From a virus (lineage: Duplodnaviria > Caudoviricetes): a stretch of 64,000 nucleotides of DNA. Made by a program: the position numbers and the translations under genes. This document shows, in pieces, positions 10,500-63,848 of the stretch (its first letter is position 1; the number at the start of each line of letters is the position of its first letter). The notes under the pieces are model-generated. The model was not told the DNA's origin. It searched no databases and was given only the letters and a program-made list of their open reading frames with translations. The stretch is from positions 7,093 to 71,092 of the IMG/VR virus record IMGVR_UViG_2974522809_000001; one strand, 5' to 3'.

Positions 10500-10565
10500 G
10501 CGGTAGCGGGGCGGTCCCGCTTGGCTGATGGAAGAACACTAACCCGACTAAGGCGGGTAAGTCAA
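10500..10565 (-). promoter_or_regulatory. Repeat promoter/palindrome/leader cassette, copy 1
   Basis: Minus strand reads TTGACT TACCCGCCTTAGTCGGGT TAGTGT N6 ATCAGCCAAGCGGGACCGCCCCGCTACCGC. Confidence 0.85.
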
Positions 10566-10600
10566 GGATAGAAACACCACCAGCAGATACCCTGACCATC

Positions 10601-11344
10601 GTGGCTTTCACGTGGCCGGTAGACCGGTCTGAGTTCCCGGCCCTGCCGGACGAGGACGACCCTGGATACGCCCAGGCGGTCCTGGAGCAGCGTGCAGCGG
10701 CTGACCTGGCCGTGGCGGTGCTGTGGGCGCTCACCGGCCGTCAGTGGGGCCTCTACGAGCACACCGTGCGCCCGTGCCGGTCTGAGTTCCCCACCTGGCC
10801 GGGGCTGGCCAGCGGCGGCGTCACCAGCTATCTGCTGAGCTGGGAGGGCGACCGGTGGATCGGCTGGAGCTGTGGCTGCGTCGGGGCCTGCAAGGTGTCC
10901 GGCCCGCGCGCTGTCCATCTGCCCGGCCCCGTCCATTCGGTGACCGAAGTCAAGATCGCCGGGGCGGTGATTGCACCGGCCGGGTACGTCGTGGAGAGCA
11001 ACGTGCTCTACCGCGTCGGGGCACCCTGGCCGGTGCAAGACCTTGGACGGCCCATTGGTGAGGCCCGCACCTGGGCGGTGACGTACCTGCGCGGCATCCC
11101 GGTGCCCGAGAGCTTCACCGCGCTGACGGGCCTGCTGGCCAAGGAGTTCCTGGCCGCGCTCGACAACGAGGGCCGGTGCCGCCTGCCGCGCACCGTCACC
11201 ACGGCCAGCCGCCAGGGCGTGACGTACCGTGCCTACGACCCCCAGGTGATCTACGCCAACGGCAAGACCGGCCTGCCCGAAATCGACCTGGTGCTGGCAG
11301 CGGTGAACCCGAACGCGCTCATGTCCGCGCCTACGGTGGTCTGA
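10601..11344 (+). CDS. Head-to-tail adaptor
   Basis: 247 aa. AADLAVAVLWALTGRQWG and CRLP..VT..SRQGV motifs are typical of actinophage adaptors. Confidence 0.7.
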   Translation: MAFTWPVDRSEFPALPDEDDPGYAQAVLEQRAAADLAVAVLWALTGRQWGLYEHTVRPCRSEFPTWPGLASGGVTSYLLSWEGDRWIGWSCGCVGACKVSGPRAVHLPGPVHSVTEVKIAGAVIAPAGYVVESNVLYRVGAPWPVQDLGRPIGEARTWAVTYLRGIPVPESFTALTGLLAKEFLAALDNEGRCRLPRTVTTASRQGVTYRAYDPQVIYANGKTGLPEIDLVLAAVNPNALMSAPTVV

Positions 11345-11874
11345 TGACGCAGCCCTGCCGCACCGACCCGGCCATGGAGGTCATCGGTGCCGTCACCACC
11401 ACGCTGACCGACTTCTTTCGGCCTGACCAGCTGTGCCCGCCCATGGTCGGCGGCACCGCCAACATCCGGTTCTTCGCTGGCGACGGCGCGCCGCTGGCCG
11501 CGTGGGACAGCCACGTCAGCCAGGGCTGCGACCAGCCATTCGTCTGGGTGCGCGCCCAGCGCCGCTACCGCAGCAAGGTGTTCCCGAACCCCACGGTGGA
11601 GGTCGGCAACTGCAAGCTGATCAAGGTCATGCCGGTGGAGGTCGGCGTGGCCTGGTGCGCGGTGGTCGAGCAGGAGCCCAAGTGGTCCGACTACGCCAAA
11701 GAGGCGGCGGTCAGCATGGACACCGCCTGGCGGCTGGAGGAGGCGCTGTGCGCCGCCGCTGCCCAGCTGCTGCGCGACGACAGCGAGCGCCTGGTGGGCA
11801 GCGACATCATCAACCCGTATGGTCCAGAGGGCGGTGTCATCGCCTGGATTGGCACCCTGTACGCCAGCTACTGA
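11344..11874 (+). CDS. Hypothetical head-tail junction protein (MTQPC...)
   Basis: ATG overlaps the upstream TGA, so the start was moved from the ORF-track 11176. 176 aa. Confidence 0.7.
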   Translation: MTQPCRTDPAMEVIGAVTTTLTDFFRPDQLCPPMVGGTANIRFFAGDGAPLAAWDSHVSQGCDQPFVWVRAQRRYRSKVFPNPTVEVGNCKLIKVMPVEVGVAWCAVVEQEPKWSDYAKEAAVSMDTAWRLEEALCAAAAQLLRDDSERLVGSDIINPYGPEGGVIAWIGTLYASY

Positions 11875-11884
11875 GGAGGACACC

Positions 11885-12235
11885 GTGGCACGTGTGACTA
11901 TCGAGGGCAGCCGCCTTTCGCCCAGCACGTTCCTGGCTGCGGGTGAGCGCATCACCGTGCAGCGCACCGAGCGCGTGGAGCGCCTGATCGCCAGCGGCTT
12001 CGTGGTGGAGGTGGCCGACGCGCGTACCGACACCGAGCGCGAGGCCGACGAGCAGGCCGAGCAGTCGCGTACCGACCTGACCCCGTACACCCTGGACAAC
12101 CCGCCCAAGCGCAACGCCAGCCGCGAGGACTGGGCCGAGTTCCTGGCCGCGCACAGCGCCCTGGGCATCACCACCGAGGGCAAGGACCGCGACACGCTCA
12201 TTGCCGAGTGGGACGCCAGTCGCGCTGCTGAGTAG
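11885..12235 (+). CDS. Hypothetical protein with C-terminal HeH/Rho-N-like module
   Basis: GAGGAGG RBS before GTG 11885, 116 aa, ends in ASREDWAEFL...GKDRDTLIAEW. Confidence 0.7.
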   Translation: MARVTIEGSRLSPSTFLAAGERITVQRTERVERLIASGFVVEVADARTDTEREADEQAEQSRTDLTPYTLDNPPKRNASREDWAEFLAAHSALGITTEGKDRDTLIAEWDASRAAE

Positions 12236-12238
12236 CCC

Positions 12239-12652
12239 ATGCCGGTAACCGCGCGCATTCACATCAACGAGCCCGAGCTGGAGCGCCAGACTGGCGCGAT
12301 CTTCCGTGGCAAGCACCGCAGCATCACGCGGCGCATCGCCACGCAGGCCCGCGTGGACGTGCCCGTGCGCACCGGCAACCTGGGCCGGGGCATCCAGGAA
12401 ATGCCCCAGACGTACCGGCCGTATCACGTCGGCGGCGGCGTGGAGGACAACGTGGACTACGCCGCCCCGGTGCATGAGGGCAGCCGCCCGCACCGCATCA
12501 CCGCCAGGCACGCCAGCGCGCTGCACTTCTACTGGCACGGGCGTGAGGTGTTCCGCAAGAGCGTCTGGCACCCCGGCGTCCGGCCCCGGCCATTCCTGCG
12601 CAACGCGGCGCGGCGCGTGGTGGCTGCGGACCCCGACATCCGTATGACGTGA
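12239..12652 (+). CDS. HK97 gp10-like tail completion protein
   Basis: 137 aa with the PVRTGNL and YAAPVHEG motifs. Confidence 0.55.
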   Translation: MPVTARIHINEPELERQTGAIFRGKHRSITRRIATQARVDVPVRTGNLGRGIQEMPQTYRPYHVGGGVEDNVDYAAPVHEGSRPHRITARHASALHFYWHGREVFRKSVWHPGVRPRPFLRNAARRVVAADPDIRMT

Positions 12653-12707
12653 CTATCCCGACATCGGTGGTAGTCTCGCGCCCGAACCCCAAGCCTCGGG
12701 AGGGCCA

Positions 12708-13268
12708 ATGACCACGTTCGGACAGCAGGGCAAGATCGTAGAGGCGGCACCGGCCGAGGAGCAGCTGGTGCCACCGGCCGACTACTGCGCCCCAGATGAC
12801 GACGCCAACGACGCACCGCCGGACGTGGACGCGGTGCTGGCCGAGGTCAACGCCGACAACGAACCCGAGGTGATCGTGGCCCCGCAGGACACGCCCTCTG
12901 GCCTGGCCGTGCAGCCCGCCGAGGACGCTGGCAACGCGGTGGCGCTGGTCAAGCGCTTCGACGTGACCACCACGGGCGAGGTCTGGGAGCACGACTTCCT
13001 GGAGTTCGAGGGCGACAAGCTGGGCATCCGGCTGCCGCAGCGCCAGGCGCTGGCGGCGTTCTCGCTGGCGTCCAGCAAGTACGTGTCCATGGGCGTCAAG
13101 AACGACCTGACCGGCCTGTTCATTGCGCGGCACCTGAGCCCCGAGAGCTACGGCCGGGTGTTCTCTCGGCTCATGGACCCCGACGACACCGCCTACGACG
13201 TGGACACCGTGGGCGAGCTGTTCAACGCGATCGTTACCGCCGCTATCGAGTCAGACGAGCAGGAATAG
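12708..13268 (+). CDS. Tail assembly chaperone (G-like, no downstream frameshift partner)
   Basis: 186 aa, GGGAGG RBS, immediately upstream of the tape measure gene. Confidence 0.65.
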   Translation: MTTFGQQGKIVEAAPAEEQLVPPADYCAPDDDANDAPPDVDAVLAEVNADNEPEVIVAPQDTPSGLAVQPAEDAGNAVALVKRFDVTTTGEVWEHDFLEFEGDKLGIRLPQRQALAAFSLASSKYVSMGVKNDLTGLFIARHLSPESYGRVFSRLMDPDDTAYDVDTVGELFNAIVTAAIESDEQE

Positions 13269-13293
13269 CCACCTGCTGGGATAGCCTGACCGG

Positions 13294-16200
13294 GTGACCG
13301 ATGTCGGCAAGATCAGCCTTGGCGTTGAACTCCATGCCGACGACCTCGCAGCAAGGCTGGGCGAGGCAGTGCGCCGGGCCATTCTGCCGACGCTCGACAA
13401 GCTGAACCGCAAGCTCAACGAGACACAGCGAGAGTACCGAAACACCGGCAACGCAGCTGAACGCAGCGCCGACAAGCAGGTGCGCCAGCTGCGCCGGGTG
13501 GCCACCGAGGCAGCCGCCACCGCTGCGGCTGTGCGAGCGGTGCAAGGGGCCTACGGCAACGGTCCCCGCGTGGACCCGGTGCCGCGCATCGAACGCCAGC
13601 GCCGCTCTACCGACGCCCTGGGCAACAGCACCCGCAGCGTTGCTGACGCGCAGCGCGAGCTGAACGAGGCCATCAACATCTTCGGGCGGCGTAGCCCCGT
13701 GGTGGAAGCTGCCCAGCGCCGCCTGGCCCGCGCCGAGGCCACCCATACCGCCGAGCTGGTGCGTGCGGCGGCGCGGTCGCGCGCAGCCACCGATAGCCAG
13801 GTCAACGACTACGAGCGCCTGGCGCGCGAGGCCGAACGGTCTGCTGCCCGCCAGGCTGCGGCGGCGCGTGCGGCCGGTGGTGGCGGTGGCCGGGGCGGTG
13901 GAGGTGGTGGACGCCGGGGCGGCGTGCTCGGATTCCTCACCGGCCCCACGGGGCTGAACACCATCGCCCTGGGCGCGCAGGCGCTGCCAGCGGTGGCAAC
14001 GGGCGTTGTCAATATCGTCGGCGCGGTGCAGCAGCTGGCCCAGGCCGGTGCGGTGCTGCCGGGCGTATTCGCTGGCGGCGCGGCTGCCATCGGTACGGCG
14101 GTGATTGGCTTCAAGGGCATGGGCGATGCCGTCAAGGCGCTCATGGACGCCGCCGACGACCCGGCCAAGCTGGAAGAGGCGAACAAGCAGCTGGAGAAGA
14201 TGGCCCCGGCTGCCGCTGCGGTGGCGCGCGAGGTGGCCAAGCTCGCTGCGCCGAACGGCCCGCTGCGCCAGTTCCAAAAGGACATCGCTCAGCCGATGTT
14301 CGAGGGCATCGACCAGCAGCTGGACGACTTCGCGGGCAAGGTGCTGCCGCGCGTCAAGCCCGGCGCGCAGAAGATCGCCGGGGCCTGGAACAACACCTTC
14401 AAAGAGGCCATGCGCGTTGGCAGCAGCGACAGCACGCTGGGCTTCATCGACCGCATTTTCGGCAACACGGCCGAGGGCCAGAACCGCGCCACCAAGGCCA
14501 TCGAGCCGCTGACCCACGCGCTGGGCCAGCTCAGCGCCACCGGCAGCGACTTCCTGCCGCGCCTGGGCGATGCGATCACCAGCGTGAGCGAGCGGCTGGA
14601 CAAGTTCATCAGCAAGAACGCCGCGAACGGCAACCTGTTCCGGTGGATTGACGAGGGCCTGAACGGTATGCGGGCCTTTGGAAACGCGGTGCTCAACGTC
14701 TTTAAGACCATCACCGGACTGACCAAGGCGGCGGGCGCTCTCGACGGCAGCCTGTCCGGCGACGGCGGGTTCCTGGGCTGGCTGGAGCGCGCCACCAAGG
14801 CCATGAGCGACCTGACCAACAGCGCCAGCGGCCAGGCCAAGCTCACCGCGTTCTTCCGCGATGGGCGCGAGGACTTGAAGCGCTGGGGTGAGCTGTTCCG
14901 CGAGGTGTGGCCCGCGCTGCGTGAGATCATCAAGGGCTTCCAGCAGTGGGGTGAAATCACCTTCCCCATCATCAAGGCCATTGGTGGCCTGGCCGGTTCG
15001 CTGGCCGAGGTGCCGGGGCTGCTCCAGGCGGTTCTGGTCGGGTTCCTGGCGTGGCGCACCATCGGCGGCATCGTCGGCGGTATCACCGGCAAGATCAAGG
15101 CCATGAACACCGCCGCAGCGGCGGGCGGTGGCGCGGCCGGTGGCCGGTTCGGCAAGGGGCAGAGCGCCCTGCTGGGCGGCAGCCTGCTGCTCAGTGGCAC
15201 CACCATGCAGCAGAACGCGGGCACCAGCACCACCAGCGGCGTGCTGGGGGCCTTGCAGACCATCGGCGGCGGCGCAGTGCTGGGCGGCACCATCGGCAGC
15301 GTGATTCCCGGCGTTGGCACGGGCATTGGCGCGCTGGTGGGCGGTGGCCTGGGCGCGGCGCTGGCCGGATACAACGCGCTGGTCAACCAGAACAAGATCG
15401 CCACCGAGGCGGCGGCAGCTGCGGCCGAGAAGTGGGCAGCCACCAACGAGCGCAGCCACCAGGCCATGCTGTTGAACAGCCAGGCCATCAAGTCGATGAA
15501 CGACGCCCTGGCTGAGTCCGGCGGCGCAATCGACGCGGCGACCCTGGCAGCCGTGGGCGAGCAGGTCAGCGCGATTCCTGAGAAGCTGGCCGGGGCCTAC
15601 GACGAGAACACGTTGAAGGGCATTGCCGCCGCGCTGGGCGACGTGGGCATGTCCACCGAGCAGATGGCCGCGACCATCACCGGTAGCCAGGGCCAGTTCG
15701 ACGCGCTGATCAACCGGCTCCAGGGCATGGGTCCGGCCGGGCAGATTGCCGCACAGCAGCTGGCCAGCATCCGAGACAACACGCTGGGCGCTGCCCAGAA
15801 CGCCGCCGCCGCTGCGCCGCTGCTCCAGCAGCTGGCCGACAAGTACGGCGGCATGGCCAACGCGCAGGTAGCTATCGAGAACGCCTTCGCCGCCATCCCC
15901 AAGGATGTGCCGATCAACATCAACATGCCCAACGGGCAGGCGGTGTTCGACATCCTCAAAGACATCGGCGCGCAGATCAAGACCAACGAGGACGGGACCA
16001 TCAACGTCACCGCCCCGCTGGCCCCGGCGGTGCTGGACCAGCTGCGTGCCCTGGGCATCCAGGTGCAGCAGAACAAGGACGGCACCATCAACGTCCAGGT
16101 GGACCCGGCCAAGTACGCCGACACCCTGGCAAAGTTGGGCACCTTGGGCTCCATGCTGCGCGACCTGCACGGCCAGTCCCTGGGCCTGCCGCCGGTACCC

Positions 16201-20801: not shown

Positions 20802-20802
20802 C

Positions 20803-32603: not shown

Positions 32604-33332
32604 TCACCAGCCAGCTTTCGCGGCGCACACCGGCCCGATGCCACGGGCGCGGCTCTCGTCGTTGGTGAGCTGGCGACCGCAAATACCGCACTCGCCAATC
32701 TCGTGGCCATAGCGGGCGCTGGCTGCCTCGGCACCCACGGCGGCGATGCGGGCCAGGATCGCCCGGCCCTGCTTCATGCTCAGCTTCTGCTCGTCGCTGC
32801 CGATGATCTGCTTGACGAACACGTACCCGGCCCAGCGGCCGGTCTCGGGGCGGTCGACCTTGTAGAACGCCGTGCCGTTGACCGCGTGGACCTGCGTGTC
32901 GATGGCGTAGCGCCCGGCAGGCACCTCCACCGTGGCGTCCTCGTAGCGCCGGTCGTCAACGCGGACGTTGGCTTGGGTAGGCAGGCTCTTGAGCCAGTCG
33001 ATCAGGGCGCTGGCACCCTGGCGGGTCAGCGGTGCCCAGAGGTAGGCGCTGTCCGTCGCGGCGTTCTCGCGCATGGTGGCCAGCACCGCGTTGACCCCGT
33101 CGCCCAGGCTGCGGGCGTACTCGACGGTCACCACGACCTCGCCGGGGGCGGTGTCCAGGTTCATGGCCCAGCTCAGGACGATGTTCAGGGCAGCGGCGCG
33201 GCTGACGTGCTTGTCGACGCCCTGGGCCTGCTGCCACTGGCGGGTGTTGAGCAGGTCGCGGATGAAGTTCAGTTGCCCGTCGCTGGCGGCAACGATGGCG
33301 GGGGCGGTGCTGGTGGCGAACGGTGAACCCAT
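32604..33332 (-). CDS. DUF6011-like zinc-ribbon domain protein
   Basis: 242 aa, C-terminal CGICGRQLTNDESRARGIGPVC. First gene downstream of cassette copy 2. Confidence 0.7.
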   Translation of the reverse strand: MGSPFATSTAPAIVAASDGQLNFIRDLLNTRQWQQAQGVDKHVSRAAALNIVLSWAMNLDTAPGEVVVTVEYARSLGDGVNAVLATMRENAATDSAYLWAPLTRQGASALIDWLKSLPTQANVRVDDRRYEDATVEVPAGRYAIDTQVHAVNGTAFYKVDRPETGRWAGYVFVKQIIGSDEQKLSMKQGRAILARIAAVGAEAASARYGHEIGECGICGRQLTNDESRARGIGPVCAAKAGW

Positions 33333-33347: not shown

Positions 33348-33413
33348 GCGGCGGCGGGGCTGTCCCGCCTGGCTGATACGACCACACTAACCCGACTAAG
33401 GCGGGTAAGTCAA
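33348..33413 (-). promoter_or_regulatory. Repeat promoter/palindrome/leader cassette, copy 2
   Basis: ACACTAACCCGACTAAGGCGGGTAAGTCAA at 33384-33413 on +, with the leader hairpin. Confidence 0.85.
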
Positions 33414-38611: not shown

Positions 38612-40317
38612 GCCTCCAGGAACTTGTCGAGGACGCGGCTGGTCACCCGTACCGAAATCTCGTCACTCAGGCGGGCCTTGGTCATGTCGTCGTCAATGAC
38701 GATGCCCAGGGTGCGGGCGAACTTGAGCTGCGCTTCGCTGGGCTTCTGGTTGCGCCGCCAGCTGGCTTTGCGTACGGGCAGCTGCTGGTCCGACTCAACG
38801 ATCCACACCTCTGCGTTCTCCAGCGCGGTGGCCAGGTCGGTGAAGTCTGGATCGTCGGTGTGGATCGGGAACCGGCCGCTGGCGGTGACCCAACCGCCCC
38901 GGCGGCTGCGGGTGCCCATCTGGCCGATGGCCCAGCGCACCGTGTCGGCCTGGCCCTTGGGCGGCACGCGGTAGCCCTCGGGCATGATGAACACCACCTG
39001 GTTGTCCTCCATGAGCGGCAGGAACGGGATGCCGCCCACGGTCTCCATCCACACCAGATCGCTGTTGGCCAGCAGGTCGATAGACACCATGTCCACCGGC
39101 CCCTGGCGCACCTCCTTGACGGCAGGCTCGCCGCCACCGTCGCCCAGCAGGTCGTCCTCGTCCAGCTCGATGTCCTCGCCGAACTCGTCCACCTCGCGGG
39201 TCTCGGCCCCGGTGTCGAGCGCGGTCAGGCTGACCAGCTTCATGGCCCTGGTGCTGCCCGCCAGGTCGAGCACCAGCGCGTCGTCCTTGTTCGGGTACAG
39301 GCGCAGCGCCCGGCCGACCATCTGGCTGTAGAGGTTGCGGCTGCGGGTCGGCCGCGCCAGCACCACCGTGTCGCACATCGGGAAGTCAGCGCCCTCGGTG
39401 AGCACCTGCACCGTGACCAGCGCGCGGGCGGTGCCGTCGCGGAAACTCTCGTAGATGGGCAGGCGGTCCTCGTACTTCATCGCGCCGGTCACTGCCACGG
39501 CGGGGAAGTCGGCGGTGGTGAGCGCGTCGGCGATGTGGTGGGCGGCGTCGACACTGGCCGCGAAGATGATGGGGCGGCGGTCGGCGGCGTGCAGCTTGAT
39601 CGCATCCACGACGTACTGCGTGCAGGCTTCCATCACCTCGGCCAGCTCGCCCTGGTGGAAGTCACCGGCCACGCTGCGCACGTCATTGAGGGCATCCAGG
39701 CCCTTGATGCGCACCGTGAGGCCACGGGGCTGCACCAGGAAGCCCTTCTTGATGGCCCAGCGAATGTCCTTCTCGTAGCTGATCTTCTGGATAACGTCGC
39801 CCAGGCCGATGACGCCACGCTCGTTGCGGTACATGGTGGCGGTGAACCCGGCCATTAGGGCGTCGTCGTAGCCGCCCAGCTCGCTGAACGTGGTGTGGAA
39901 GCCCTCGGCTCCGGCGTGGTGCACCTCGTCCCAGAGGATGACGTGGCGCTTGCCCAGGGCCTGGCGGCGGTGAGCGGTGGCCAGCGTCTGGAGCGTGGCG
40001 AACACGATGTCGGCGTGGCTGTCGTCGGTCTCGGCGCGGACAATGCCGGTGCGGTCGGCGTAGTGGGGTGCCACCGCGATGAAGTCACGGCGCATCTGGT
40101 CGAGGAGTTCGCCCCGGTGGGCCAGGCACAGCACGCGCTGGCTGCGGTCGAGGGCGCGGCGTCCGGTCTCACCGATGACGCTGGACTTGCCCGAACCCGT
40201 GGGGAGAACGACACCTACACGGTTCTTGCCGCTGGCCCAGTCCCGCTCTACGGCGTCAACTGCGGCGACCTGGTAATCACGAAGCTGGCGCGGGGCCGGT
40301 GCTGCGGTGGTGGTCAT
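38608..40317 (-). CDS. SF2 DNA helicase
   Basis: 569 aa with LPTGSGKS (Walker A), DEVHH, GFTAT, VLTEGAD and QMVGRALR motifs. Confidence 0.92.
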   Translation of the reverse strand: MTTTAAPAPRQLRDYQVAAVDAVERDWASGKNRVGVVLPTGSGKSSVIGETGRRALDRSQRVLCLAHRGELLDQMRRDFIAVAPHYADRTGIVRAETDDSHADIVFATLQTLATAHRRQALGKRHVILWDEVHHAGAEGFHTTFSELGGYDDALMAGFTATMYRNERGVIGLGDVIQKISYEKDIRWAIKKGFLVQPRGLTVRIKGLDALNDVRSVAGDFHQGELAEVMEACTQYVVDAIKLHAADRRPIIFAASVDAAHHIADALTTADFPAVAVTGAMKYEDRLPIYESFRDGTARALVTVQVLTEGADFPMCDTVVLARPTRSRNLYSQMVGRALRLYPNKDDALVLDLAGSTRAMKLVSLTALDTGAETREVDEFGEDIELDEDDLLGDGGGEPAVKEVRQGPVDMVSIDLLANSDLVWMETVGGIPFLPLMEDNQVVFIMPEGYRVPPKGQADTVRWAIGQMGTRSRRGGWVTASGRFPIHTDDPDFTDLATALENAEVWIVESDQQLPVRKASWRRNQKPSEAQLKFARTLGIVIDDDMTKARLSDEISVRVTSRVLDKFLEA

Positions 40318-40416: not shown

Positions 40417-40446
40417 AAACTAACCCGACTATTGCGGGTAAGTCAA
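40417..40446 (-). promoter_or_regulatory. Repeat promoter variant (copy 3) upstream of the helicase, without the leader hairpin
   Basis: Minus strand reads TTGACT TACCCGCAATAGTCGGGT TAGTTT. Confidence 0.75.
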
Positions 40447-44965: not shown

Positions 44966-46782
44966 ACCTTGGCCCAGGCTGAGCCCATGTCGGCGCGGTC
45001 GGTGCGCAACACCGGCACCCGCTCGGCCCAGGTGATCAGGAACTGCGGCGGCGTCAGCATGATCTGCTGGACCTCCTCGGCCACCTCGGTGTCCACCACC
45101 AGCTCGTCGTGCATGGCCAGCTGGAGGTGGTCAGCGATACCGCGCCGCTCCATCTCCACGATGCTGTGCGCCAGCACGTCGTAGGCGCTGCCCTGGATGG
45201 CGTAGTTGACCGCCTTGTACTCGAACCCAGGGTCCACCGGCAGAATGCGCCCGCCAGCGGTGACCACCCGGCCGTAGGTCTCGGCCACGTTCTGGACCTT
45301 GCGCATCCAGCGCTCGCAGCCCTTCATCGCCTCGAACATCTGCCGCCTGATCTGGGCTGCGGACTCCTCGGTGTGGCCGATCTGGCGGGCCAGCTTGGCG
45401 ATGCCCAGCCCGTACATGGTGCCGAGCAGAACCACCTTGGCCACCGGCCGCTCGATACCGGCGCTGCGCTGAATCGGCTCATACAGGTCTTCCCCGGCCT
45501 CGAACGGGGCCAGGAATGCGTGGTCCTGGGCCATCAGCGCCATGGTGACCGGCTCGATCTGGCTCCAGTCGATACTGGTCAGGCCCTGCCCGTCGTCGGT
45601 GATGATGGCCCGCGCGTCGGCGGGGAACTGCTGGAGTTCGGGGCTGCCATAGCTCATGCGGCCGGTGGCGCTGGCCCCCAGCACGCCCACCTGGGGATGG
45701 CAGCGGCCGGTCACGCTGGCCTGCCGGTCGACCTTCTCCAGGTAGCCCATCACCTTCTCGATCTGGGCCAGCTTGCGCTGCGCAGCGGCCAGCGGATGGT
45801 CCAGGCCCTCCAGTAAGTCCTTGGTGGCCTTGAGCTTTCGGGTCGGGGTGCGCGGCCAGGGCTCGGGCAGCTCGCCGCGCTCATACAGGTACTCCACCAG
45901 CTTGGCACCCTTGCCGGAGCCGCCCTCCAGGCCATGCGCGGCCAGCTCGGCAATGGCCAAGTTGCGGTCCACGTCGACCTGCTCGGCGTAGCGGTCCAGG
46001 TAGGCGCGGTCCACGGCCAGGCCCACGGCGCTGCGCCGGAGCATCACGCGGTGGACGGTCTCCTGGGTGCCCAGCAGCGCAGCCGCCTGGCCCTCGCTGG
46101 TGGCCCCGTAGGTGCTGAACGGATGATCGGTGGACCAGTGATGCGCCTTGGCCCGCATGATCGGCTCGATTGCCAGGGTGGCCACGGTGTCGGCCATCGC
46201 GCCGTAGCGGTACACCGGGCTGGTGATGTCCATGCCCTCGAACCCGGCCTGCTGAGTCTTGTACCCGGCAGCCTTGAAGGCGCGCTCGAGCCCACCCTTG
46301 TCGTCGGACAGGCCCAGGTGCCGGATGCTCAGCGCGGTGAGGTTCTTGGGGACCATCACGTCGGGCACCGCGAACCGCGCCACCACCAGCGTGTCGATGA
46401 TCTTGTTCACGTCCACCAGGTCGAGCAGCTGGGCGTGGTGCAGGATCGGCACGTCGAACGGCGCGTTGTGGAACACCAGATGGGCGGCGTGCTCCACCAC
46501 GTCGCGCACGATCGCATGGTCGGCCCCGGTGCGGGCCGGGTCGAGGATGACCGTGTGGACCTGGCCTGCCGGGGTGGCCCAGGCGAACGTGACGCAGTTG
46601 ATGGTGAAGCTGTTCAGGCCCGGCGTCTCGATGTCCATGGCCACGGTGACGGTGCCGGGCTCGGTGCCGTAGATCAGCTCACCGCAGGCCAGCCGGGCGT
46701 TCTGGCCGGTGTGCATGGTGGCGTCGAGCACCGGGTCATACCAGGTGCGGCTGGGCACGCGGGGAATGGCGGTGGTAGTCAC
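44962..46782 (-). CDS. DNA polymerase, family A (3'-5' exonuclease + polymerase)
   Basis: DIET, HNAPFD, IDWSQIE, KVVLLGTMYG and MHDE motifs. GTG 46782 overlaps the upstream TGA. Confidence 0.93.
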   Translation of the reverse strand: MTTTAIPRVPSRTWYDPVLDATMHTGQNARLACGELIYGTEPGTVTVAMDIETPGLNSFTINCVTFAWATPAGQVHTVILDPARTGADHAIVRDVVEHAAHLVFHNAPFDVPILHHAQLLDLVDVNKIIDTLVVARFAVPDVMVPKNLTALSIRHLGLSDDKGGLERAFKAAGYKTQQAGFEGMDITSPVYRYGAMADTVATLAIEPIMRAKAHHWSTDHPFSTYGATSEGQAAALLGTQETVHRVMLRRSAVGLAVDRAYLDRYAEQVDVDRNLAIAELAAHGLEGGSGKGAKLVEYLYERGELPEPWPRTPTRKLKATKDLLEGLDHPLAAAQRKLAQIEKVMGYLEKVDRQASVTGRCHPQVGVLGASATGRMSYGSPELQQFPADARAIITDDGQGLTSIDWSQIEPVTMALMAQDHAFLAPFEAGEDLYEPIQRSAGIERPVAKVVLLGTMYGLGIAKLARQIGHTEESAAQIRRQMFEAMKGCERWMRKVQNVAETYGRVVTAGGRILPVDPGFEYKAVNYAIQGSAYDVLAHSIVEMERRGIADHLQLAMHDELVVDTEVAEEVQQIMLTPPQFLITWAERVPVLRTDRADMGSAWAKV

Positions 46783-48873: not shown

Positions 48874-49142
48874 TGGCCGGTGCCCAGGTGCTCGACGCTC
48901 ACGGTGACCACCGGCAGCGCGTAGTCCATAGGCGGGGCCATGCCCGGCCCGCAGATGCGGTTGCCCATGGTGGTGCAGTCCCAGCACGGCTGGTCCTCCT
49001 CGCACTGCTGGCCGGTGGGCTCAGCAACGCGGTGCTCGGCAGGCTCGGCGGTGATCAGCGCGCCGACCGGCATACCGACAGCCAGGCCGATCAGCAGGCC
49101 CGCGCCGAACATCACAGCGCGGTCGGAGTTGGTAATGGGCAT
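48870..49142 (-). CDS. Small membrane-anchored Cys-rich protein
   Basis: 90 aa, N-terminal TM, CEEDQPCWDCTTMGNRICGP motif. Confidence 0.75.
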   Translation of the reverse strand: MPITNSDRAVMFGAGLLIGLAVGMPVGALITAEPAEHRVAEPTGQQCEEDQPCWDCTTMGNRICGPGMAPPMDYALPVVTVSVEHLGTGQ

Positions 49143-49166: not shown

Positions 49167-49228
49167 GTAGCGGGGCTGTCCCGCCGGGGTAATAAAGGTT
49201 ATACGTTACGCATCACGGCCAGCGCAAG
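49167..49228 (-). promoter_or_regulatory. Cassette leader hairpin fused to a different promoter
   Basis: Minus strand reads TTGCGC-18-TATAAC...GGCGGGACAGCCCCGCTAC, with no CCCG-N7-CGGG spacer. Confidence 0.55.
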
Positions 49229-54557: not shown

Positions 54558-54730
54558 GCGCTCATCCGCAGCCGGATTTCGTGCCGCACCAGCGTGCGCT
54601 GGCTGGCATGGCTGCCGAACGTGTTCGACCGGGCGCACATTTCCAGCTCGTCCAGCAGCTGCTCGTCGGTCATGTCGATCAGGCTGGCCTGGTAGGCGTC
54701 GATGTCGGCTTGGGTGACCATGCGCTCCAT
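54554..54730 (-). CDS. 58-aa protein not in the ORF track (MERMVTQADIDAYQ...)
   Basis: GAGGAG RBS, directly downstream of cassette copy 4, GC3-rich codons. Confidence 0.75.
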   Translation of the reverse strand: MERMVTQADIDAYQASLIDMTDEQLLDELEMCARSNTFGSHASQRTLVRHEIRLRMSA

Positions 54731-54747: not shown

Positions 54748-54813
54748 GCGGCGGCGGGGCTGTCCCGCGTGGCTGATGGAATCAGACTAACCCGACTAAG
54801 ACGGGTAAGTCAA
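54748..54813 (-). promoter_or_regulatory. Repeat promoter/palindrome/leader cassette, copy 4
   Basis: AGACTAACCCGACTAAGACGGGTAAGTCAA at 54784-54813, with the leader. Confidence 0.85.
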
Positions 54814-58330: not shown

Positions 58331-58355
58331 GGTGGGCCGGGCCTTCCGGCCCACC
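58331..58355. other. Perfect 10-bp hairpin directly upstream of the HicA-like RBS
   Basis: GGTGGGCCGG-gcctt-CCGGCCCACC. Confidence 0.7.
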
Positions 58356-58365
58356 GGGGCGGTGC

Positions 58366-58668
58366 TCAGTGCTTGATCTGGGGAACCTCGTCGGTGTGAC
58401 CGTTGACGTAGTTGGTCACGCGGATCACGTCCATGCCGTCGGCCATGTCCAGGTTGAACACCGCCACCCGGCCCTTGAGCCCGTCGACCGGGATTTCCAC
58501 GTCGGCGTAGCGGCCGAGCGCTACGTGGTGCGCCAGGTGGTCCCAGGTCACCTGGCCCAGGTCGGCCTGGGCTTCGATCATGCCGTCGAGCATGTCAGCG
58601 CCCTTGACCCCGCGATCTTCGAGCATGTCGATGACCTGGCCCTTGGTGACGATGACGATGGTGGACAT
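58366..58668 (-). CDS. Hypothetical protein (MSTIVIVTKG...)
   Basis: AAGGAG RBS, 100 aa, first gene after cassette copy 5. Confidence 0.75.
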   Translation of the reverse strand: MSTIVIVTKGQVIDMLEDRGVKGADMLDGMIEAQADLGQVTWDHLAHHVALGRYADVEIPVDGLKGRVAVFNLDMADGMDVIRVTNYVNGHTDEVPQIKH

Positions 58669-58685
58669 TTCTGGTCTCCTTACCT

Positions 58686-58751
58686 GCGGCGGCGGGGCTG
58701 TCCCGCCTGGCTGATGTAAGAACACTAACCCGACTAAGGCGGGTAAGTCAA
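58686..58751 (-). promoter_or_regulatory. Repeat promoter/palindrome/leader cassette, copy 5
   Basis: Exact 30-mer at 58722-58751, with the leader. Confidence 0.85.
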
Positions 58752-58918
58752 GCGTTTCTAGCTGGCAATTTGGCCGAATGTCTGCGCACCATGCCGTTCG
58801 CCTTCTCTGCGAACCGACGCCCGCAGGCGGCGCAGTAGGCGTGACCGCGAAAGGTGCGGGCCGGGGCCTTGTCAGACCCCGAGCACCGCACCCTCTGCTC
58901 AGCGGTGGTCGCCTGCAT
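58748..58918 (-). CDS. 56-aa Zn-finger-like protein not in the ORF track
   Basis: MQATTAEQRVRCSGSDKAPARTFRGHAYCAACGRRFAEKANGMVRRHSAKLPARNA. Its TGA lies inside the TTGACT -35 box. Confidence 0.55.
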   Translation of the reverse strand: MQATTAEQRVRCSGSDKAPARTFRGHAYCAACGRRFAEKANGMVRRHSAKLPARNA

Positions 58919-59216: not shown

Positions 59217-59425
59217 CAGGACACCTCCACCCACTGCATCACCACAGCCAGCGCGGCGTCGTAGTTGTCGGCGTTGGTCACCTCGTCCACGAACGCGGTC
59301 ACCTCGTCGGCGTGCCCGGCCTCGCGCAGCGCCTTGCTCACCTTCCCGATGATGAAGAACACGTTGCCGTCCTGGCCGGTGAGCTGCACGTGGACATCGG
59401 GGTGCTTGGGCGCGGTTCCGGCCAT
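59216..59425 (-). CDS. Hypothetical protein
   Basis: 69 aa, AGGAGG RBS. Confidence 0.7.
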   Translation of the reverse strand: MAGTAPKHPDVHVQLTGQDGNVFFIIGKVSKALREAGHADEVTAFVDEVTNADNYDAALAVVMQWVEVS

Positions 59426-60042
59426 CAGTACCGGTCCTCCTGGCCGAAGGGGTTGCCGCCGCGCACCACGATGCCGTACACCCCGGTGTGGCCACCGGCA
59501 CCGCCAGCGCCGCCACCACGGACCACGCCACCGTCGGCGTAGCGGGGCACCTCGGCGCTCACCAGCGGGTCCACCACGCCGCTGGTCCCCAGCACCCGGC
59601 CGAAGCTGCCCATGCGCTCGGCCATAGGCTCCTCCTCGTCGGGGCTGGGGCCGATGTTCTCCGTGTCGGTGACCACGCGCAGGCTGGGCCAGTTGCCCTC
59701 ACCGATGAACTGGAGCAGGCCCGGCCAGTTGAGCCGGTCGGTGGTGTTGCCGGTGACCGCCCAGCGCACGCTCCGGCCCTGCCGCCAGCCCACGGCGGCG
59801 TAGTGGTACTCCCGCCCGGCCTGGTACTTGGTGAAGATGACGACCGCGCTTTCGCCCTCGTGCACGGGCGGCATCTTGGGGCGGCGCTCCTCGCGGCGGC
59901 GCAGCTCCTCGGCGGCAACCAGCCGGTCGATCCTGGTGGCTTCCTCCAGCATCTGGGCAGCCTGGCGGCGCAGGTCATTGGCGCGGATGGGGTTGACCGG
60001 CGCAGCCTCGGCGGCTACTGCCTTCTCGCCTTCGTTGGACAT
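59425..60042 (-). CDS. Hypothetical protein (MSNEGEK...)
   Basis: AAGGAGG RBS with an AC-rich tract, 205 aa; start moved from 60261. Confidence 0.7.
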   Translation of the reverse strand: MSNEGEKAVAAEAAPVNPIRANDLRRQAAQMLEEATRIDRLVAAEELRRREERRPKMPPVHEGESAVVIFTKYQAGREYHYAAVGWRQGRSVRWAVTGNTTDRLNWPGLLQFIGEGNWPSLRVVTDTENIGPSPDEEEPMAERMGSFGRVLGTSGVVDPLVSAEVPRYADGGVVRGGGAGGAGGHTGVYGIVVRGGNPFGQEDRY

Positions 60043-60131
60043 GGGATCCTCCTTGGTTGTGGTGGCGGGGTAGCGGATGCCACCCCGCTTCATGGGCGGG
60101 ATGCCCTCGGGGAACAGGGCGGTGAAGATGC

Positions 60132-60362
60132 CTACGGTGTCACCACCTCGTCGTCGGGGCCGGAGCCGTAGCTGGACGGGTGCTTGGCGGTGGCGCATCG
60201 GGCGTTCTTGCCCGCCATGCCGACGCCGTGCTTGGCGTTGACAAACGCGGGGTTCATGCACGCCTGGTCGTAGACCGGGTACTTGCCGGTCTCGGCGCTG
60301 GCGGTCGCGGCACCGAACAGGGCCAGCCCTGCGGTCAGTGCGGCGGCGATCAGGTACTTCAT
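60132..60362 (-). CDS. Small secreted protein (signal peptide, 2 Cys)
   Basis: AAGGAGG RBS, MKYLIAAALTAGLALFGAATASA, 76 aa. Confidence 0.75.
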   Translation of the reverse strand: MKYLIAAALTAGLALFGAATASAETGKYPVYDQACMNPAFVNAKHGVGMAGKNARCATAKHPSSYGSGPDDEVVTP

Positions 60363-60396
60363 GGTGGTTCCTCCTTGGTTGTGGTTTGGTCGTGCG

Positions 60397-60467
60397 CTCC
60401 AGGGGCGGGAATCGAACCCGCGAGGTTGGCTCGTCAGCCGTGGCGACCCCATCGCGCCAGCCCTGGA
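60397..60467 (-). ncRNA. tRNA-like cloverleaf with a 4-nt anticodon loop (tRNA mimic or pseudo-tRNA)
   Basis: 7-bp acceptor TCCAGGG/CCCTGGA, D-arm GGCG/CGCC, T-arm GCGGG-TTCGATT-CCCGC, 5-nt variable loop ending in C. No encoded CCA. Confidence 0.65.
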
Positions 60468-60514
60468 AGGTGGTACCGGGCCAGTGGTCAGTTCACCGGC
60501 CCGGCACCGGTCTA

Positions 60515-61573
60515 TTACACCGGCAGCAGCGCGCTGAACGCCTTGGCCTTCATGTCGCCCAGGTCGTTGCTCATCAGGGTGCGCTGCGCCCGCTTGATGG
60601 CTGCCTCCTCGCCCTCGGCCTTGGCGGCGGCACCGGCCAGCGGTGCCACATGGTCCAGGTACTCGGTCACCGCGTTGTACACCCCGAACGCCGTGCCACG
60701 GAACGGGGCCACGGTCTCGGCGGTGCGGTACAGGTCAACCACCTCGGCGGCGCGCAGCTTGCGGCTCTCGGCCTGCTTCTCGGTGGTGGCACCCGGCACG
60801 TTCCAGATGTCCTCCAGCACCTCGATGACCTGCACGGGCGTCATCTCCCGCTTGATCAGCTTCTCCACCTGCTCCACGAACGTGTCGCGGTACTGGAAGG
60901 TCAGCCCCAGCAGCTGGCGAATCTCGGCCAGGCGCTTGTCCGGCGTGCCGGTGTGGCGCAGGGTAGCGGTGCTGCGGGCGGCGCTCTCGGCCATGCGCTG
61001 CGTGTTGGCGCACACGATGCGCACCGGGGCGATGAGCGCGCGGAGCGGGGCCTGGCCGGTGTGGTTGTTCAGGACGCTGATGTACAGGTCCGTCACGTCC
61101 AGCTCACCGGTCACCGGGCTGCGAAACTCCATGTGGCTGGGCAGCTTCATGGTGACGAAGGTGTCCCGCCCGCCGCGCAGTGCGCCGATGGTCTCGATGT
61201 GTGCGCCGCCCTCGTCCACGATCTGGTTCAGCAGCTCGGTGGTCTGCTCGTTCTGGAACGGGGTCCAGCGGTTGCCGACCACGCCCAGCGCCTCGGTGCC
61301 GCCGTTGATCGGGTTCGTGCGGAGCACGACGTTGCGATCCGGCACGGTCAGGCTCAGGGTGCCCTCGCCGGTCTGGTCGGGCACCTCGGCGGTCAGGGGC
61401 ATGGTGCGCACGTCCCAGCCGCGCATGTGGGCGGCGTCCAGGGCCTCGTCCACCGTCATGGTGTGGCCGACGGGCGTGCCCAGCTTGTGCCAGGCGTCCA
61501 CCCGTCCGCTGGCGTCCACTCGGCTGTCGGCAAAGCTGGTGACGCCATCGGTGGTGTCGAGTTCGTGGGCCAT
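60515..61573 (-). CDS. DUF932-family phage/plasmid-like protein (TIGR03299-like)
   Basis: 352 aa with AWHKLGT, W..FQN, ET.G.L.GG..F, N.H.G, P.R..CANT, and GTA.G.YNAVTEY.DH motifs. Confidence 0.8.
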   Translation of the reverse strand: MAHELDTTDGVTSFADSRVDASGRVDAWHKLGTPVGHTMTVDEALDAAHMRGWDVRTMPLTAEVPDQTGEGTLSLTVPDRNVVLRTNPINGGTEALGVVGNRWTPFQNEQTTELLNQIVDEGGAHIETIGALRGGRDTFVTMKLPSHMEFRSPVTGELDVTDLYISVLNNHTGQAPLRALIAPVRIVCANTQRMAESAARSTATLRHTGTPDKRLAEIRQLLGLTFQYRDTFVEQVEKLIKREMTPVQVIEVLEDIWNVPGATTEKQAESRKLRAAEVVDLYRTAETVAPFRGTAFGVYNAVTEYLDHVAPLAGAAAKAEGEEAAIKRAQRTLMSNDLGDMKAKAFSALLPV

Positions 61574-61596
61574 GGTGTCCTCCTTGGTAGTGGTTG

Positions 61597-61656
61597 GCGG
61601 GGCGGTCCCGCCTGTCTGATACGTTCACACTAACCCGACTAAGGCGGGTAAGTCAA
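61597..61656 (-). promoter_or_regulatory. Repeat promoter/palindrome/leader cassette, copy 6
   Basis: Exact 30-mer at 61627-61656, with the leader. Confidence 0.85.
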
Positions 61657-61677
61657 GCGCTTCTAGCAGGCAATTTG

Positions 61678-61833
61678 TCAGAAACTGCCCATGAGATAGC
61701 CCACCGGGATGGCCAGGGCGCACGTCACCGTGAGCACCGCGCACACCAGCTCGGTCAGGGTGTCCTGCTTGGCGTAGTGCAGGCCCACGCAGGCCAGCAG
61801 GCCCACGCACACGATGATCAGCTGGAGGATCAC
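61678..61833 (-). CDS. 51-aa two-TM membrane protein (MILQLIIVC...)
   Basis: GTGA overlap, GGGAGG RBS, two hydrophobic segments. Confidence 0.65.
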   Translation of the reverse strand: MILQLIIVCVGLLACVGLHYAKQDTLTELVCAVLTVTCALAIPVGYLMGSF

Positions 61834-62297
61834 CAGGGGCCTCCCTCGGGCAGGTTGAACCAGGTACGGCGCTGCTCGTCGGGCGTGGGGTCCGGCATCA
61901 CCGTGATGATCTGCTCCCCGGCTGGATAGTGCGTGCACTGGTCGGTGCAGGGGTAACCCTCGGCGTGGTCGTGCAAGGACACTGCCGGGTAGGGCTTGCG
62001 GATTACGGTGGGCCACCGCGCCTCAATGCCGATGTTCACCCGCTGTTCGGGCGCTGGCGGGGCCAGCAGCGCCTCCCAGGGCACCGGGTCAGGCCCCAGC
62101 TCGACCATGCGCGCAAACAGCCCGCCATCGGTCTCCTGGAACACCTTGTCACGGCGCTCCTGGCGAATCTCGTGGGCGATCTGCGCCGCCCAGCGGATGT
62201 GACCGGCGGCGTCGGCGGCGCGGTTGCGCCTGCGGGCCTTGCGACCGAACCAGCCGCAGCTCGGGCACCAAACGGCATGTTCCACGTGGAACCTCAC
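61830..62297 (-). CDS. Hypothetical protein (CPSC motif)
   Basis: 155 aa, GTGA overlap. Confidence 0.65.
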   Translation of the reverse strand: MRFHVEHAVWCPSCGWFGRKARRRNRAADAAGHIRWAAQIAHEIRQERRDKVFQETDGGLFARMVELGPDPVPWEALLAPPAPEQRVNIGIEARWPTVIRKPYPAVSLHDHAEGYPCTDQCTHYPAGEQIITVMPDPTPDEQRRTWFNLPEGGPW

Positions 62298-62674
62298 GGC
62301 ATGACCACCTTGAACTCGTTACGGAAGAGGCAGAGCCGCTTTCCTCGGGCGAACTTGATGCAGTACAGCGGACCATTGCCGGTCTCGATAACCGACGTGA
62401 TCTGGCCGGGGCGGGCGGGCAGGATGACCTTGCGCACGTCGGGGGCGGTCTCCACGCGGTCGCCCACCACCGGCACCACGGTGTACCCGTCGCTGATGTC
62501 GATCAGCCGGGCGTGAGCGGAGCGCTCGCAGGCGCGCTGGGCCTCGGCCTTGGTGCCGCACACATCGGTGAAGTCTGGCCCGCTGGCGGTCCAGATGGGC
62601 CGGTGCGTGCCCGCGCTGAGCACGGCGTAGGGTCCGGCCTGGTACAGCCCTGGCCGGGTGCGGGTCCACTTCAT
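62294..62674 (-). CDS. Hypothetical protein
   Basis: 126 aa, GGGAGG RBS, ATGA overlap. Confidence 0.7.
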   Translation of the reverse strand: MKWTRTRPGLYQAGPYAVLSAGTHRPIWTASGPDFTDVCGTKAEAQRACERSAHARLIDISDGYTVVPVVGDRVETAPDVRKVILPARPGQITSVIETGNGPLYCIKFARGKRLCLFRNEFKVVMP

Positions 62675-62895
62675 GCGCGGGCCTCCCGTCGTGCGGCCCA
62701 GTAGGCGGCGTTCTCGCCCAGCTCAAAGTCCACAATGCGGCTGGCCAGCGCCCAGTCCGCAGCCTCGGCGTCCAGGGTGTTCTCCAGCGAGCTGGTGATG
62801 CCCTGGCCGGTGCGGCAGGTGGCGTCGTGGTCGTTGACGTAGCCGTCGCAGTCCTCGCAGGTGGGCGGCTCGATGATGTCGGCGGGGTCGTACAT
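62671..62895 (-). CDS. Small CxxC..H..C protein
   Basis: 74 aa, GAAAGGA RBS, first gene after cassette copy 7. Confidence 0.75.
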   Translation of the reverse strand: MYDPADIIEPPTCEDCDGYVNDHDATCRTGQGITSSLENTLDAEAADWALASRIVDFELGENAAYWAARREARA

Positions 62896-62907
62896 GTCGA
62901 TCCTTTC

Positions 62908-62973
62908 GCGGTAGCGGGGCTGTCCCGCTTGGCTGATATAGGAACACTAACCCGACTAAGGCGGGTAAGTCAA
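62908..62973 (-). promoter_or_regulatory. Repeat promoter/palindrome/leader cassette, copy 7
   Basis: Exact 30-mer at 62944-62973, with the leader. Confidence 0.85.
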
Positions 62974-63009
62974 GGGCCAGGACCAGGCAATTTGCCCGGC
63001 CCTGGCCCT
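62973..63009 (-). terminator. Hairpin abutting the -35 of cassette copy 7
   Basis: Minus strand AGGGCCAGG-G-CCGGGCA-AAT-TGCCTGG-T-CCTGGCCCT, just after the TAA of 63017-63763. Confidence 0.7.
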
Positions 63010-63016
63010 CGGGTGG

Positions 63017-63763
63017 TTACGCCTTGGCCTTGGCAGCCTTGCGGGCGGCGTCACCGGGGCGGGGCTTGCGGCCACCGGGGTTCGCGCTGGTGGGCACGTG
63101 CTGGAGCCACTTGCCGACCGCCTCGTTGGCCTCTGCGGCGTCCAAGCCCTCCGGCAGGGTGATGGTGCCGTCGGCCAGCGCTGCGTTCACCAGAGCGACG
63201 ATCTGGTCACCAAGCGCCTGCTTCTTGCTCACGCGCTTGGCCGGTGCCTCGGTGACCTCGGTGACCTCGGGGGCCGGGGCCATCGCCTCGACGGTCTCGG
63301 CGTCGGTGACGGGCTCGTCCACCTCGGGCTCGGGGTCGGCGGGCACCTCGGGGAGGATGTCGGCCAGCGCGTCGGCTGCGGACTCGTAGACGGTGACGTT
63401 GGACTTGATCGCCTTGCCCTTGCTGGCCTTCTTCGGGGCCTTGGCCTTGGGCGCGTTCTTGGCCTCGATCAGCGCGTTGATGGCCTCTTCCTGCCAGCCC
63501 TTGTCGGCGGGGAAGTCACCGACGTTGGCCACACCCTGCACGCTGGTGGGCACGGCGGGCACCACGTTGGACTCCCACCCCTTCTCGGCGAAGTGCGCGC
63601 CCACCTTGCCGCTGCGGGCCTTCTCGGCGGCGGCAGCGGACTTGTGCCAGCTGTAGGCCGAGTTGTTGACCATCAGCACGTGGGTGTAGGGCATGGTCGG
63701 GCTGGTGCGGGTGAAGGTTTTGCCGTTGTCGGCGGTGGCGGTGAAGGTAACGGTTGCGGCCAT
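63017..63763 (-). CDS. Hypothetical protein (Ala/Lys/Glu-rich), likely highly expressed early gene
   Basis: 248 aa, AAAGGAG RBS, strong codon bias, first gene after cassette copy 8. Confidence 0.8.
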   Translation of the reverse strand: MAATVTFTATADNGKTFTRTSPTMPYTHVLMVNNSAYSWHKSAAAAEKARSGKVGAHFAEKGWESNVVPAVPTSVQGVANVGDFPADKGWQEEAINALIEAKNAPKAKAPKKASKGKAIKSNVTVYESAADALADILPEVPADPEPEVDEPVTDAETVEAMAPAPEVTEVTEAPAKRVSKKQALGDQIVALVNAALADGTITLPEGLDAAEANEAVGKWLQHVPTSANPGGRKPRPGDAARKAAKAKA

Positions 63764-63782
63764 TTTGGCTCTCCTTTGATCT

Positions 63783-63848
63783 GCGGTAGCGGGGCGGTCC
63801 CGCTTGGCTGATACAGGAACACTAACCCGACTTAGGCGGGCAAGTCAA
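63783..63848 (-). promoter_or_regulatory. Repeat promoter/palindrome/leader cassette, copy 8 (variant)
   Basis: ACACTAACCCGACTTAGGCGGGCAAGTCAA at 63819-63848, with the leader and an AT-rich upstream segment. Confidence 0.85.

Follow-up and report, generated by a model that had tools for sequence, protein, structure and literature searches.

The DNA analysed here, referred to as the window, is a 64,000-nt stretch corresponding to bases 7093-71092 of a 71,092-bp phage record. It belongs to a Cluster B4 mycobacteriophage (Coopervirus) with approximately 93% identity to Mycobacterium phage BrownCNA, and it also matches Cooper, Nigel, Stinger, Adawi and other Coopervirus or Cluster B4 phages. Cluster B is the second-largest mycobacteriophage group, with more than 350 genomes (PMC9262239). 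The GC content of the window is about 69%; its structural genes are transcribed rightward, and the replication genes as well as many small genes leftward. The subject of this report is a 17-nt hairpin, repeated in eight 5' untranslated regions (5'UTRs) of this phage, which we tentatively interpret as a 5'-proximal stabiliser and insulator of the messages that carry it.

Both the window and the whole genome were scanned with the pattern ATCAGMCANGCGGGACMGCCCCGC, allowing up to 3 mismatches. The window contains eight matches, all on the minus strand, compared with none in 100 dinucleotide shuffles, and the 71,092-bp genome contains the same eight hairpin sites and none besides. The repeated leader hairpin proposed in a first-pass annotation of this DNA is therefore real. 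That annotation had assigned it to seven transcripts, where we find eight hairpin leaders, seven of them behind a shared promoter; its coordinates were accurate to about 6 nt, and we correct the strand, as all copies lie on the minus strand. All eight hairpins are located in 5'UTRs and on the coding strand, with about 42-51 nt from the first leader base to the start codon. Seven follow a 30-bp SigA-type promoter, which we call the cassette promoter, and the remaining one (at 49170) follows a different promoter. On the minus strand, the seven cassette copies read TTGACT, an 18-nt spacer with CCCG-N7-CGGG, TAGTGT, six variable bases and ATCAGCCA, after which come N, GCGGG-ACMGC-CCCGC and N; in these seven, the ATG is 42-49 nt away from the first A. 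In agreement with the variable 6-nt gap noticed before, the stretch between the -10 element (TAGTGT) and ATCAG differs among the copies, and sequence conservation resumes at the predicted +1. All eight leaders open with AUCAGCCA and continue with a 6-bp GC stem (GGCGGG/CCCGCC), the first pair of which is variable, closed by a 5-nt loop of the form A-C-N-G-N. The hairpin begins at about +9 of the predicted transcript, so that in this phage an unpaired 5' tail of 8 nt remains. From the end of the stem it is about 10 nt to a strong Shine-Dalgarno sequence (GGAG) and about 20 nt to the start codon. Both the +1 positions used here and the early timing of these leaders are predictions from the sequence.

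In window coordinates, and always on the minus strand, the first hairpin (copy 10506) occupies 10505..10521 behind cassette promoter copy 1 at 10536..10565 (TTGACT, the 18-nt spacer with CCCG-N7-CGGG, and TAGTGT; predicted +1 at 10529). Its 5'UTR of 48 nt runs from 10529 to 10482 and leads into a gene for an 85-amino-acid DUF7185 protein (ATG at 10481). The second hairpin (copy 33354, 33353..33369) lies behind promoter copy 2 at 33384..33413 (predicted +1 at 33377), and its 45-nt 5'UTR is followed by a DUF6011 gene (ATG at 33332) and then by two helix-turn-helix (HTH) genes. Hairpin 3 (copy 49170, 49169..49185, ATG at 49142) is the one that is preceded by an unrelated promoter, TTGCGC-N18-TATAAC; its leader shares sequence from about the same first base as the others, and the combination of this promoter with the hairpin module is kept in the orthologues of all relatives. 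Hairpin 4 (copy 54754, 54754..54768), which has 5 bp only, sits behind promoter copy 3 at 54784..54813 (spacer centre TCTTAGT; predicted +1 at 54777) in a 47-nt 5'UTR that precedes a 58-amino-acid open reading frame (ATG at 54730). Hairpin 5 (copy 58692, 58691..58707, ATG at 58668) belongs to promoter copy 4 at 58722..58751 (predicted +1 at 58715), hairpin 6 (copy 61597, 61596..61612, with the ATG of a 352-amino-acid gene at 61573) to promoter copy 5 at 61627..61656 (predicted +1 at 61620), hairpin 7 (copy 62914, 62913..62929, ATG at 62895) to promoter copy 6 at 62944..62973 (predicted +1 at 62937) and hairpin 8 (copy 63789, 63788..63804, ATG at 63763) to promoter copy 7 at 63819..63848, a TTGACTTGCCCGCCTAAGT variant with its predicted +1 at 63812. 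The closing pair is A-U at 10506, 62914 and 63789, G-C at 33354, 58692 and 61597 and G.U at 49170, with C/C at the sixth position at 54754, each exactly as it had been called before.

Some of these copies show additional features. Copies 10506 and 63789 (window 10224-10565 and 63017-63848, minus strand) are paralogous well past the hairpin, with the same 3' flank and ATG spacing, and at the 10506 position the other B4 genomes differ in the first gene and have a leader of the G-C type; this suggests that the region results from a cassette-plus-gene replacement within the structural operon. In three cassette promoters the -35 element is preceded, at a distance of 5-25 nt, by a further common motif, CAAATTGCC(T/A)G (58752-58778, 61657-61683 and 62974-63000, minus strand), which at 62974-63010 lies inside a GC-rich inverted repeat, GGGCCAGGGCC..GGTCCTGGCCC. 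Possible roles of the motif are those of an UP-like element or a regulator site, or it may mark where the upstream transcript ends. Nigel has an extra hairpin with leader and gene (45505-45519, minus strand) that immediately follows the stop codon of the preceding gene, without a recognisable promoter, and we conclude from this promoterless copy that the leader module is able to move independently of the promoter.

For the comparison with relatives, contexts of the hairpin were collected from five complete B4 genomes, from Vincenzo, Phelemich and KayaCho and from IMG/VR contigs. The GGCGGG/CCCGCC stem heads leaders of Rosebush, PG1 (a subcluster B1 relative), Pipefish, Phelemich, KayaCho, Vincenzo, Tsukamurella phage TPA2 and Gordonia phage Evaa, with 7-11 copies per genome (7-8 in TPA2 and Evaa). 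At least four promoter architectures precede the module, which in each case begins at the predicted +1; they include GAGACAA..TAATGT without a spacer palindrome in Rosebush (B2), TTGACAA-N16-TATTGT in Pipefish (B3) and a promoter spacer with TACCACC..TAGGTA in TPA2. The predicted 5' tail is 3-5 nt long in Rosebush, PG1, Pipefish, KayaCho, TPA2 and Evaa, and each copy in Rosebush, Pipefish, PG1, TPA2 and Evaa is placed 14-28 nt before a start codon. Among 148 distinct contexts, consensus arms are present in 145, the distance from hairpin to start codon is 21 +/- 4 nt, and the loop measures 5 nt in 141 (95%) and 3, 4 or 6 nt in the other seven; the first position of the five-nt loops is A in 131 of 141. 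In orthologous lysin-side leaders from different genera, all non-stem positions have diverged and the 12 stem bases are unchanged. Where copies precede plus-strand genes, as in Pipefish and TPA2, they are inverted together with the gene. Across 2.9 million viral contigs, the motif combined with a Shine-Dalgarno sequence and ATG is nearly confined to these phages of about 60-72 kb, and in 596 Gb of cellular genomes, screened for possible host mimicry, the matches listed are scattered single ones in many high-GC taxa. The persistence of the stem under differing promoters, in phages of Mycobacterium, Gordonia and Tsukamurella, points to an RNA signal on early phage messages, and as it persists even where the promoter and every flanking leader position have diverged, hitch-hiking cannot explain it. 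TPA2 and Evaa are themselves distantly related to Cluster B; in the capsid gene region their nucleotide identity to it is about 75-79%. Loops in Evaa have the form A-N-N-N-A, the conserved part being only loop position 1, plus position 5 outside B4.

In isolation the hairpin has a predicted free energy of -9.3 to -11.5 kcal/mol, and it is present in the minimum free energy and centroid folds of all eight leaders, with the Shine-Dalgarno sequence mostly unpaired. RNAalifold predicts exactly this 6-bp hairpin from 72 distinct leaders, in which the inner five pairs are invariant (71-72/72) and the outer pair is G-C in 50, A-U in 6, G.U in 5 and unpaired in 11. Between orthologous leaders, the closing pair changes from A-U in Cooper to G-C in Adawi, and from A-U in Adawi to G.U in Stinger. 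The covariation on which the first-pass annotation relied is thus real at the outermost pair, but the five inner pairs do not take part and the events are few; the RNA-level function that it proposed finds its support in the comparison with relatives and not in the closing pair. The consensus stem occurs in 129 of 139 promoter contexts. Two stems in this set are clearly compensated (GCCGG/CCGGC and CCGGG/CCCGG), a third (GCGGC/GCCGC) is found in the 148-context set, and most departures in one arm are indels that retain at least 5 bp. The case for the predicted hairpin is comparative, not thermodynamic. A longer stem pairing the 5' tail with the 3' flank (AUC..GAU, GC..GC) was rejected for want of leader-specific co-adaptation: shuffled flanks gave an extension energy as good in 0/200 cases, and flanks swapped among leaders in 33/200.

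The cassette contains a second dyad with which the hairpin can be compared. The CCCG-N7-CGGG palindrome in the -35/-10 spacer (for example at 10545-10559, 33393-33407 and 58731-58745, minus strand) has an asymmetric 7-nt centre, which among copies and orthologues is found in both orientations in 95 of 130 contexts (CCTTAGT 29, ACTAAGG 21), and in Rosebush, Pipefish, TPA2 and Evaa it is missing or replaced by a different dyad. The spacer palindrome behaves as a duplex-DNA operator specific to a lineage would. Among the hairpins, the main loops (ACCGC, ACAGC, ACGGA, ACCGG and ACCGA), on the other hand, were never seen as their reverse complement, and arm-swapped hairpins never occurred in a promoter context. 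Four lines favour a strand-specific, base-paired RNA element over a DNA operator: the orientation of the loop is fixed, the orientation of the element follows the gene, departures from the stem are mostly compensated, and the length of the loop varies. What we observe directly is that the repeat exists, where it lies, that it is conserved across genera and that it is strand-specific. A DNA palindrome that flips and a hairpin that does not, both within one cassette, offer a clean and testable way to tell DNA-level from RNA-level control.

An eighth cassette promoter, at 40419-40446 on the minus strand, has a leader that differs from the hairpin module. This leader extends over 93 nt to a DNA helicase gene (ATG at 40317) and contains a 40-nt hairpin (40410-40371, minus strand; predicted -31 kcal/mol, z = -3.9) that starts exactly at the predicted +1; the rest of it is CA-rich and lacks a Shine-Dalgarno sequence. 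In six lineages, namely Stinger, Cooper, Vincenzo, Phelemich, KayaCho and a PG1-like contig, a long hairpin of unrelated sequence is found at the same predicted +1, and we regard the helicase leader as a clear case of predicted structural conservation. As the hairpins in six lineages start at the same predicted first base, they support the +1 assignment and indicate that these phages use 5' structures. The helicase leader hairpin may serve to stabilise the 5' terminus or as a site for RNase III.

We tentatively favour the idea, to which we give somewhat less than even credence, that the leader repeat is a cis-acting RNA stem-loop that functions as a 5'-proximal mRNA stabiliser and insulator. 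On this view, the host RNA polymerase carrying SigA would transcribe the leftward operons into messages with a stem-loop close to their 5' end. The hairpin would then act as a 5' barrier and slow decay that depends on the 5' end, be it exonucleolysis by RNase J or the entry or scanning of RNase E, and it would insulate the ribosome-binding site, giving very different first genes a uniform, stable leader. In addition, a conserved and probably host-encoded factor would read the frozen stem sequence. The stabiliser reading is suggested by the anatomy, which matches in that a 5'-proximal GC hairpin, a short unstructured A/C-rich linker and a strong Shine-Dalgarno sequence are combined in a leader about 45 nt long. 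Known 5' stabilisers include the ompA and aprE leaders, obstacles to RNase E scanning are also known, and mycobacteria rely on both RNase E and RNase J. The sequence of an element with a purely structural role would be expected to drift, as that of the hairpin in the helicase leader has done. Here the stem and the order of its arms stayed frozen while the operators in the promoter spacers diverged, and we therefore assume that something invariant reads the stem. A host factor is likelier in this role than a co-evolving phage protein. We infer that the hairpin forms in vivo and that it stabilises the message.

Several observations weigh against a stabilising hairpin. In E. coli, more than about 4 unpaired nucleotides abolish the protection conferred by a 5'-terminal stem-loop, and the unpaired tail of 8 nt in this phage lies beyond that of classical 5'-terminal stabilisers, although most relatives have 3-5 nt. 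Compared with dinucleotide shuffles, the folding z of the individual leaders is only -0.1 to -1.8 in this genome of 69% GC. A stabiliser that works by structure alone would be expected to show covariation, yet the covariation term of RNAalifold is approximately zero, with the five inner pairs invariant, and the 148-context set has no wobble signature, the counts of G/T (9) and A/C (8) at the sixth pair being much the same. Compensated variants of a palindrome can also arise by templated repair at the DNA level, without selection. Furthermore, the invariant half-sites and the spacing fixed at 5 nt in 95% of the copies fit a dimeric DNA-binding protein.

Alternatively, the hairpin could be the RNA address tag of a regulon, such that one conserved protein binds the 5' end of every early message and switches the stability, translation or elongation of all of them together. 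We consider this unlikely. The protein would be either a core host factor of the Mycobacteriales or a phage protein of Cluster B, TPA2-like and Evaa-like phages, and such a tag would constitute an N/boxB- or RegA-like system new to actinobacteriophages. A 5' stabiliser and a factor-binding site, both raised in the first-pass annotation, are the two leading RNA-level options, and sequence alone cannot separate them. Rather unlikely, in our view, is that the hairpin is the RNA recognition site of a trans-acting factor that controls all these operons together. This factor could be phage-encoded and group-wide or a host protein common to the Mycobacteriales, and its possible modes include loading in the manner of N on boxB to bring about termination resistance, translational repression similar to RegA, and marking a nuclease target that ends early messages. 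Such a factor would account for a stem sequence and arm order that are frozen across three host genera while the single-copy helicase leader hairpin turns over fully, and for the A at loop position 1 (131/141 copies). The 5-6-bp stem, the pentaloop and the conserved linear 5' element resemble the layout of a nut site, and the promoterless copy inside a Nigel operon would also fit. However, the loop is not GNRA-like, and positions 2-4 vary freely in Evaa. Terminator-like sites downstream are no more frequent than in shuffles (5 found versus 5.1 expected, Rho-dependent sites lying outside the scan), and a Pfam search with 10 neighbouring proteins gave only DUF6011, DUF7185 and weak HTH matches and no candidate RNA-binding protein for the trans-acting role. 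Finally, the lineage-specific spacer palindromes show that phage-encoded specificities drift, which the hairpin did not.

Coming back to the fit with a dimeric DNA-binding protein, the element could act as an operator in duplex DNA, bound at the half-sites GGCGGG and CCCGCC, 11 bp apart from centre to centre. We regard this as unlikely, but as a serious rival. From its position, which is about +9 to +25 here and +5 to +21 in relatives, it would block initiation or early elongation at all these operons, for example during the shut-off of early genes, with a layout like that of lacO or CIRCE (controlling inverted repeat of chaperone expression) and a logic like that of stoperators. The perfect dyad with invariant half-sites, a variable centre and 5-nt spacing in 141/148 contexts is what such a protein would require; the five inner pairs lack covariation, the outer pair is G/T and A/C equally often, and the HTH genes beside one copy (the 33354 operon) are conserved in all relatives. 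Nevertheless, the strongly asymmetric centre never flips, whereas that of the spacer palindrome in the same cassettes does so in 95/130 contexts, and the orientation of the element always follows the gene. Centres of 3, 4 or 6 nt persist in related phages, individual copies bear symmetric double changes and not single ones, and a repressor and its operator would be expected to co-diverge between lineages in the way the spacer palindromes did.

It is quite improbable that the hairpin acts during transcription or not at all. In the first case, the nascent hairpin or the GC-rich initial transcribed DNA would tune promoter-proximal pausing, backtracking or escape; in the second, the leader would merely be carried along as duplication and recombination spread a promoter-gene cassette. 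Copies 10506 and 63789, paralogous far past the hairpin, are in line with such spreading, and discriminators that are near-identical among the copies within a genome, as in Cooper, suggest concerted evolution. Against this, the stem survives in the lysin-side orthologues, where the promoter and all flanking leader positions have diverged, the hairpin emerges only after promoter escape, and it lacks a U-tract, so that it is neither a terminator nor an attenuator. An intrinsic terminator or attenuator was likewise rejected in its own right, as the hairpin is followed by YRCCGC without a T run and the terminator scan does not call the sites, and mimicry of a clustered regularly interspaced short palindromic repeat (CRISPR) or of a transfer RNA T-arm was dropped, because neither the arm order nor the loop fits.

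A cmscan of the whole window against Rfam (E<=1) returned no family match and only three sub-threshold matches; one of these, p27_CRE (25 bits, gathering score 42), has a chance overlap with copy 33354. Neither the motif nor the cassette, the exact hairpin strings included, was found described in the searchable literature, which leaves subscription papers outside and a prior description possible, and no study of Cluster B gene expression or of the hairpin element was found in that literature. There is a real chance that this proposed cis-acting leader stem-loop, which is apparently undescribed, marks an undescribed early-gene regulon. As the element survives complete turnover of promoter and leader in phages of three host genera, these 17 nt at the head of 7-11 operons per genome stand out as a strong candidate for a site of central importance to the control of early expression. 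The hairpin leader would also be a compact, portable leader for mycobacterial expression tools and, if a host factor reads the hairpin, it would provide a handle on mRNA decay or translation in the Mycobacteriales.

Other repeated sites have been described in mycobacteriophages. Cluster A stoperators are asymmetric 13-bp repressor sites of temperate phages; the hairpin site is a perfect dyad, and no integrase or immunity repressor is annotated in the gene tables of relatives that were examined, although no search aimed at them was made. The hairpin resembles stoperators and the Cluster O sites in that a short conserved site recurs many times in the transcription units of a mycobacteriophage. 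In Cluster O, this is a 17-bp palindrome, TGTTCGGNNNCCGAACA, a dyad with a variable centre (PMC4351075); its centre has no orientation bias and copies also lie inside genes, whereas the centre of the hairpin keeps one strict orientation and its copies are confined to 5'UTRs. The start-associated sequence (SAS) of Cluster K phages is a 13-nt motif, GGGATAGGAGCCC, located 3-8 nt before the start codon, and the inverted repeats of the extended SAS (ESAS) are 17 bp long, imperfect and subcluster-specific, with little support for a hairpin according to the authors (PMC3203893). Like the hairpin, SAS and ESAS are repeated, oriented motifs upstream of many start codons, conserved across subclusters and of unknown function (PMC3203893). 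The stem described here differs in that it is perfect, invariant and tied to the predicted +1, lies about 20 nt from the start codon and has a different sequence. The hairpin element has the defining features of none of SAS/ESAS, the Cluster O palindromes and the Cluster A stoperators.

More general parallels can be drawn with dyads and stem-loops in the leaders of other systems. Like lacO1 and the CIRCE element bound by HrcA, the phage dyad lies just past +1 and is transcribed into the leader; the sequences are unrelated and, unlike in these two systems, no cognate binding protein has been identified. In the case of CIRCE, the action extends to the mRNA as well as the DNA. With the lambda nut site (boxA and boxB, bound by N), the hairpin shares its place just downstream of early promoters and its order of parts, in which a 5-6-bp stem and a pentaloop come after a short, conserved linear element. 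The boxB hairpin of lambda consists of a 5-bp stem and a GNRA-like pentaloop of the GAAAA or GACAA type. The phage element has the stem and pentaloop geometry, but its A-C-N-G-N loop is not GNRA-like (ACAGC, ACCGC, ACGGA or AGGTA), there is no match to boxA, it is present in eight copies instead of two, the Pfam search with neighbouring genes gave no N-like protein and terminators are not in excess. With E. coli ompA hp1, the B. subtilis aprE leader and the stabiliser of phage SP82, it has in common a stable 5'-proximal hairpin in a short leader with a strong ribosome-binding site close by. What distinguishes the phage hairpin from these stabilisers is its occurrence in many copies (8 per genome) and a sequence frozen across genera, together with a predicted tail of 8 nt in this B4 phage, against 3-5 nt in most relatives.

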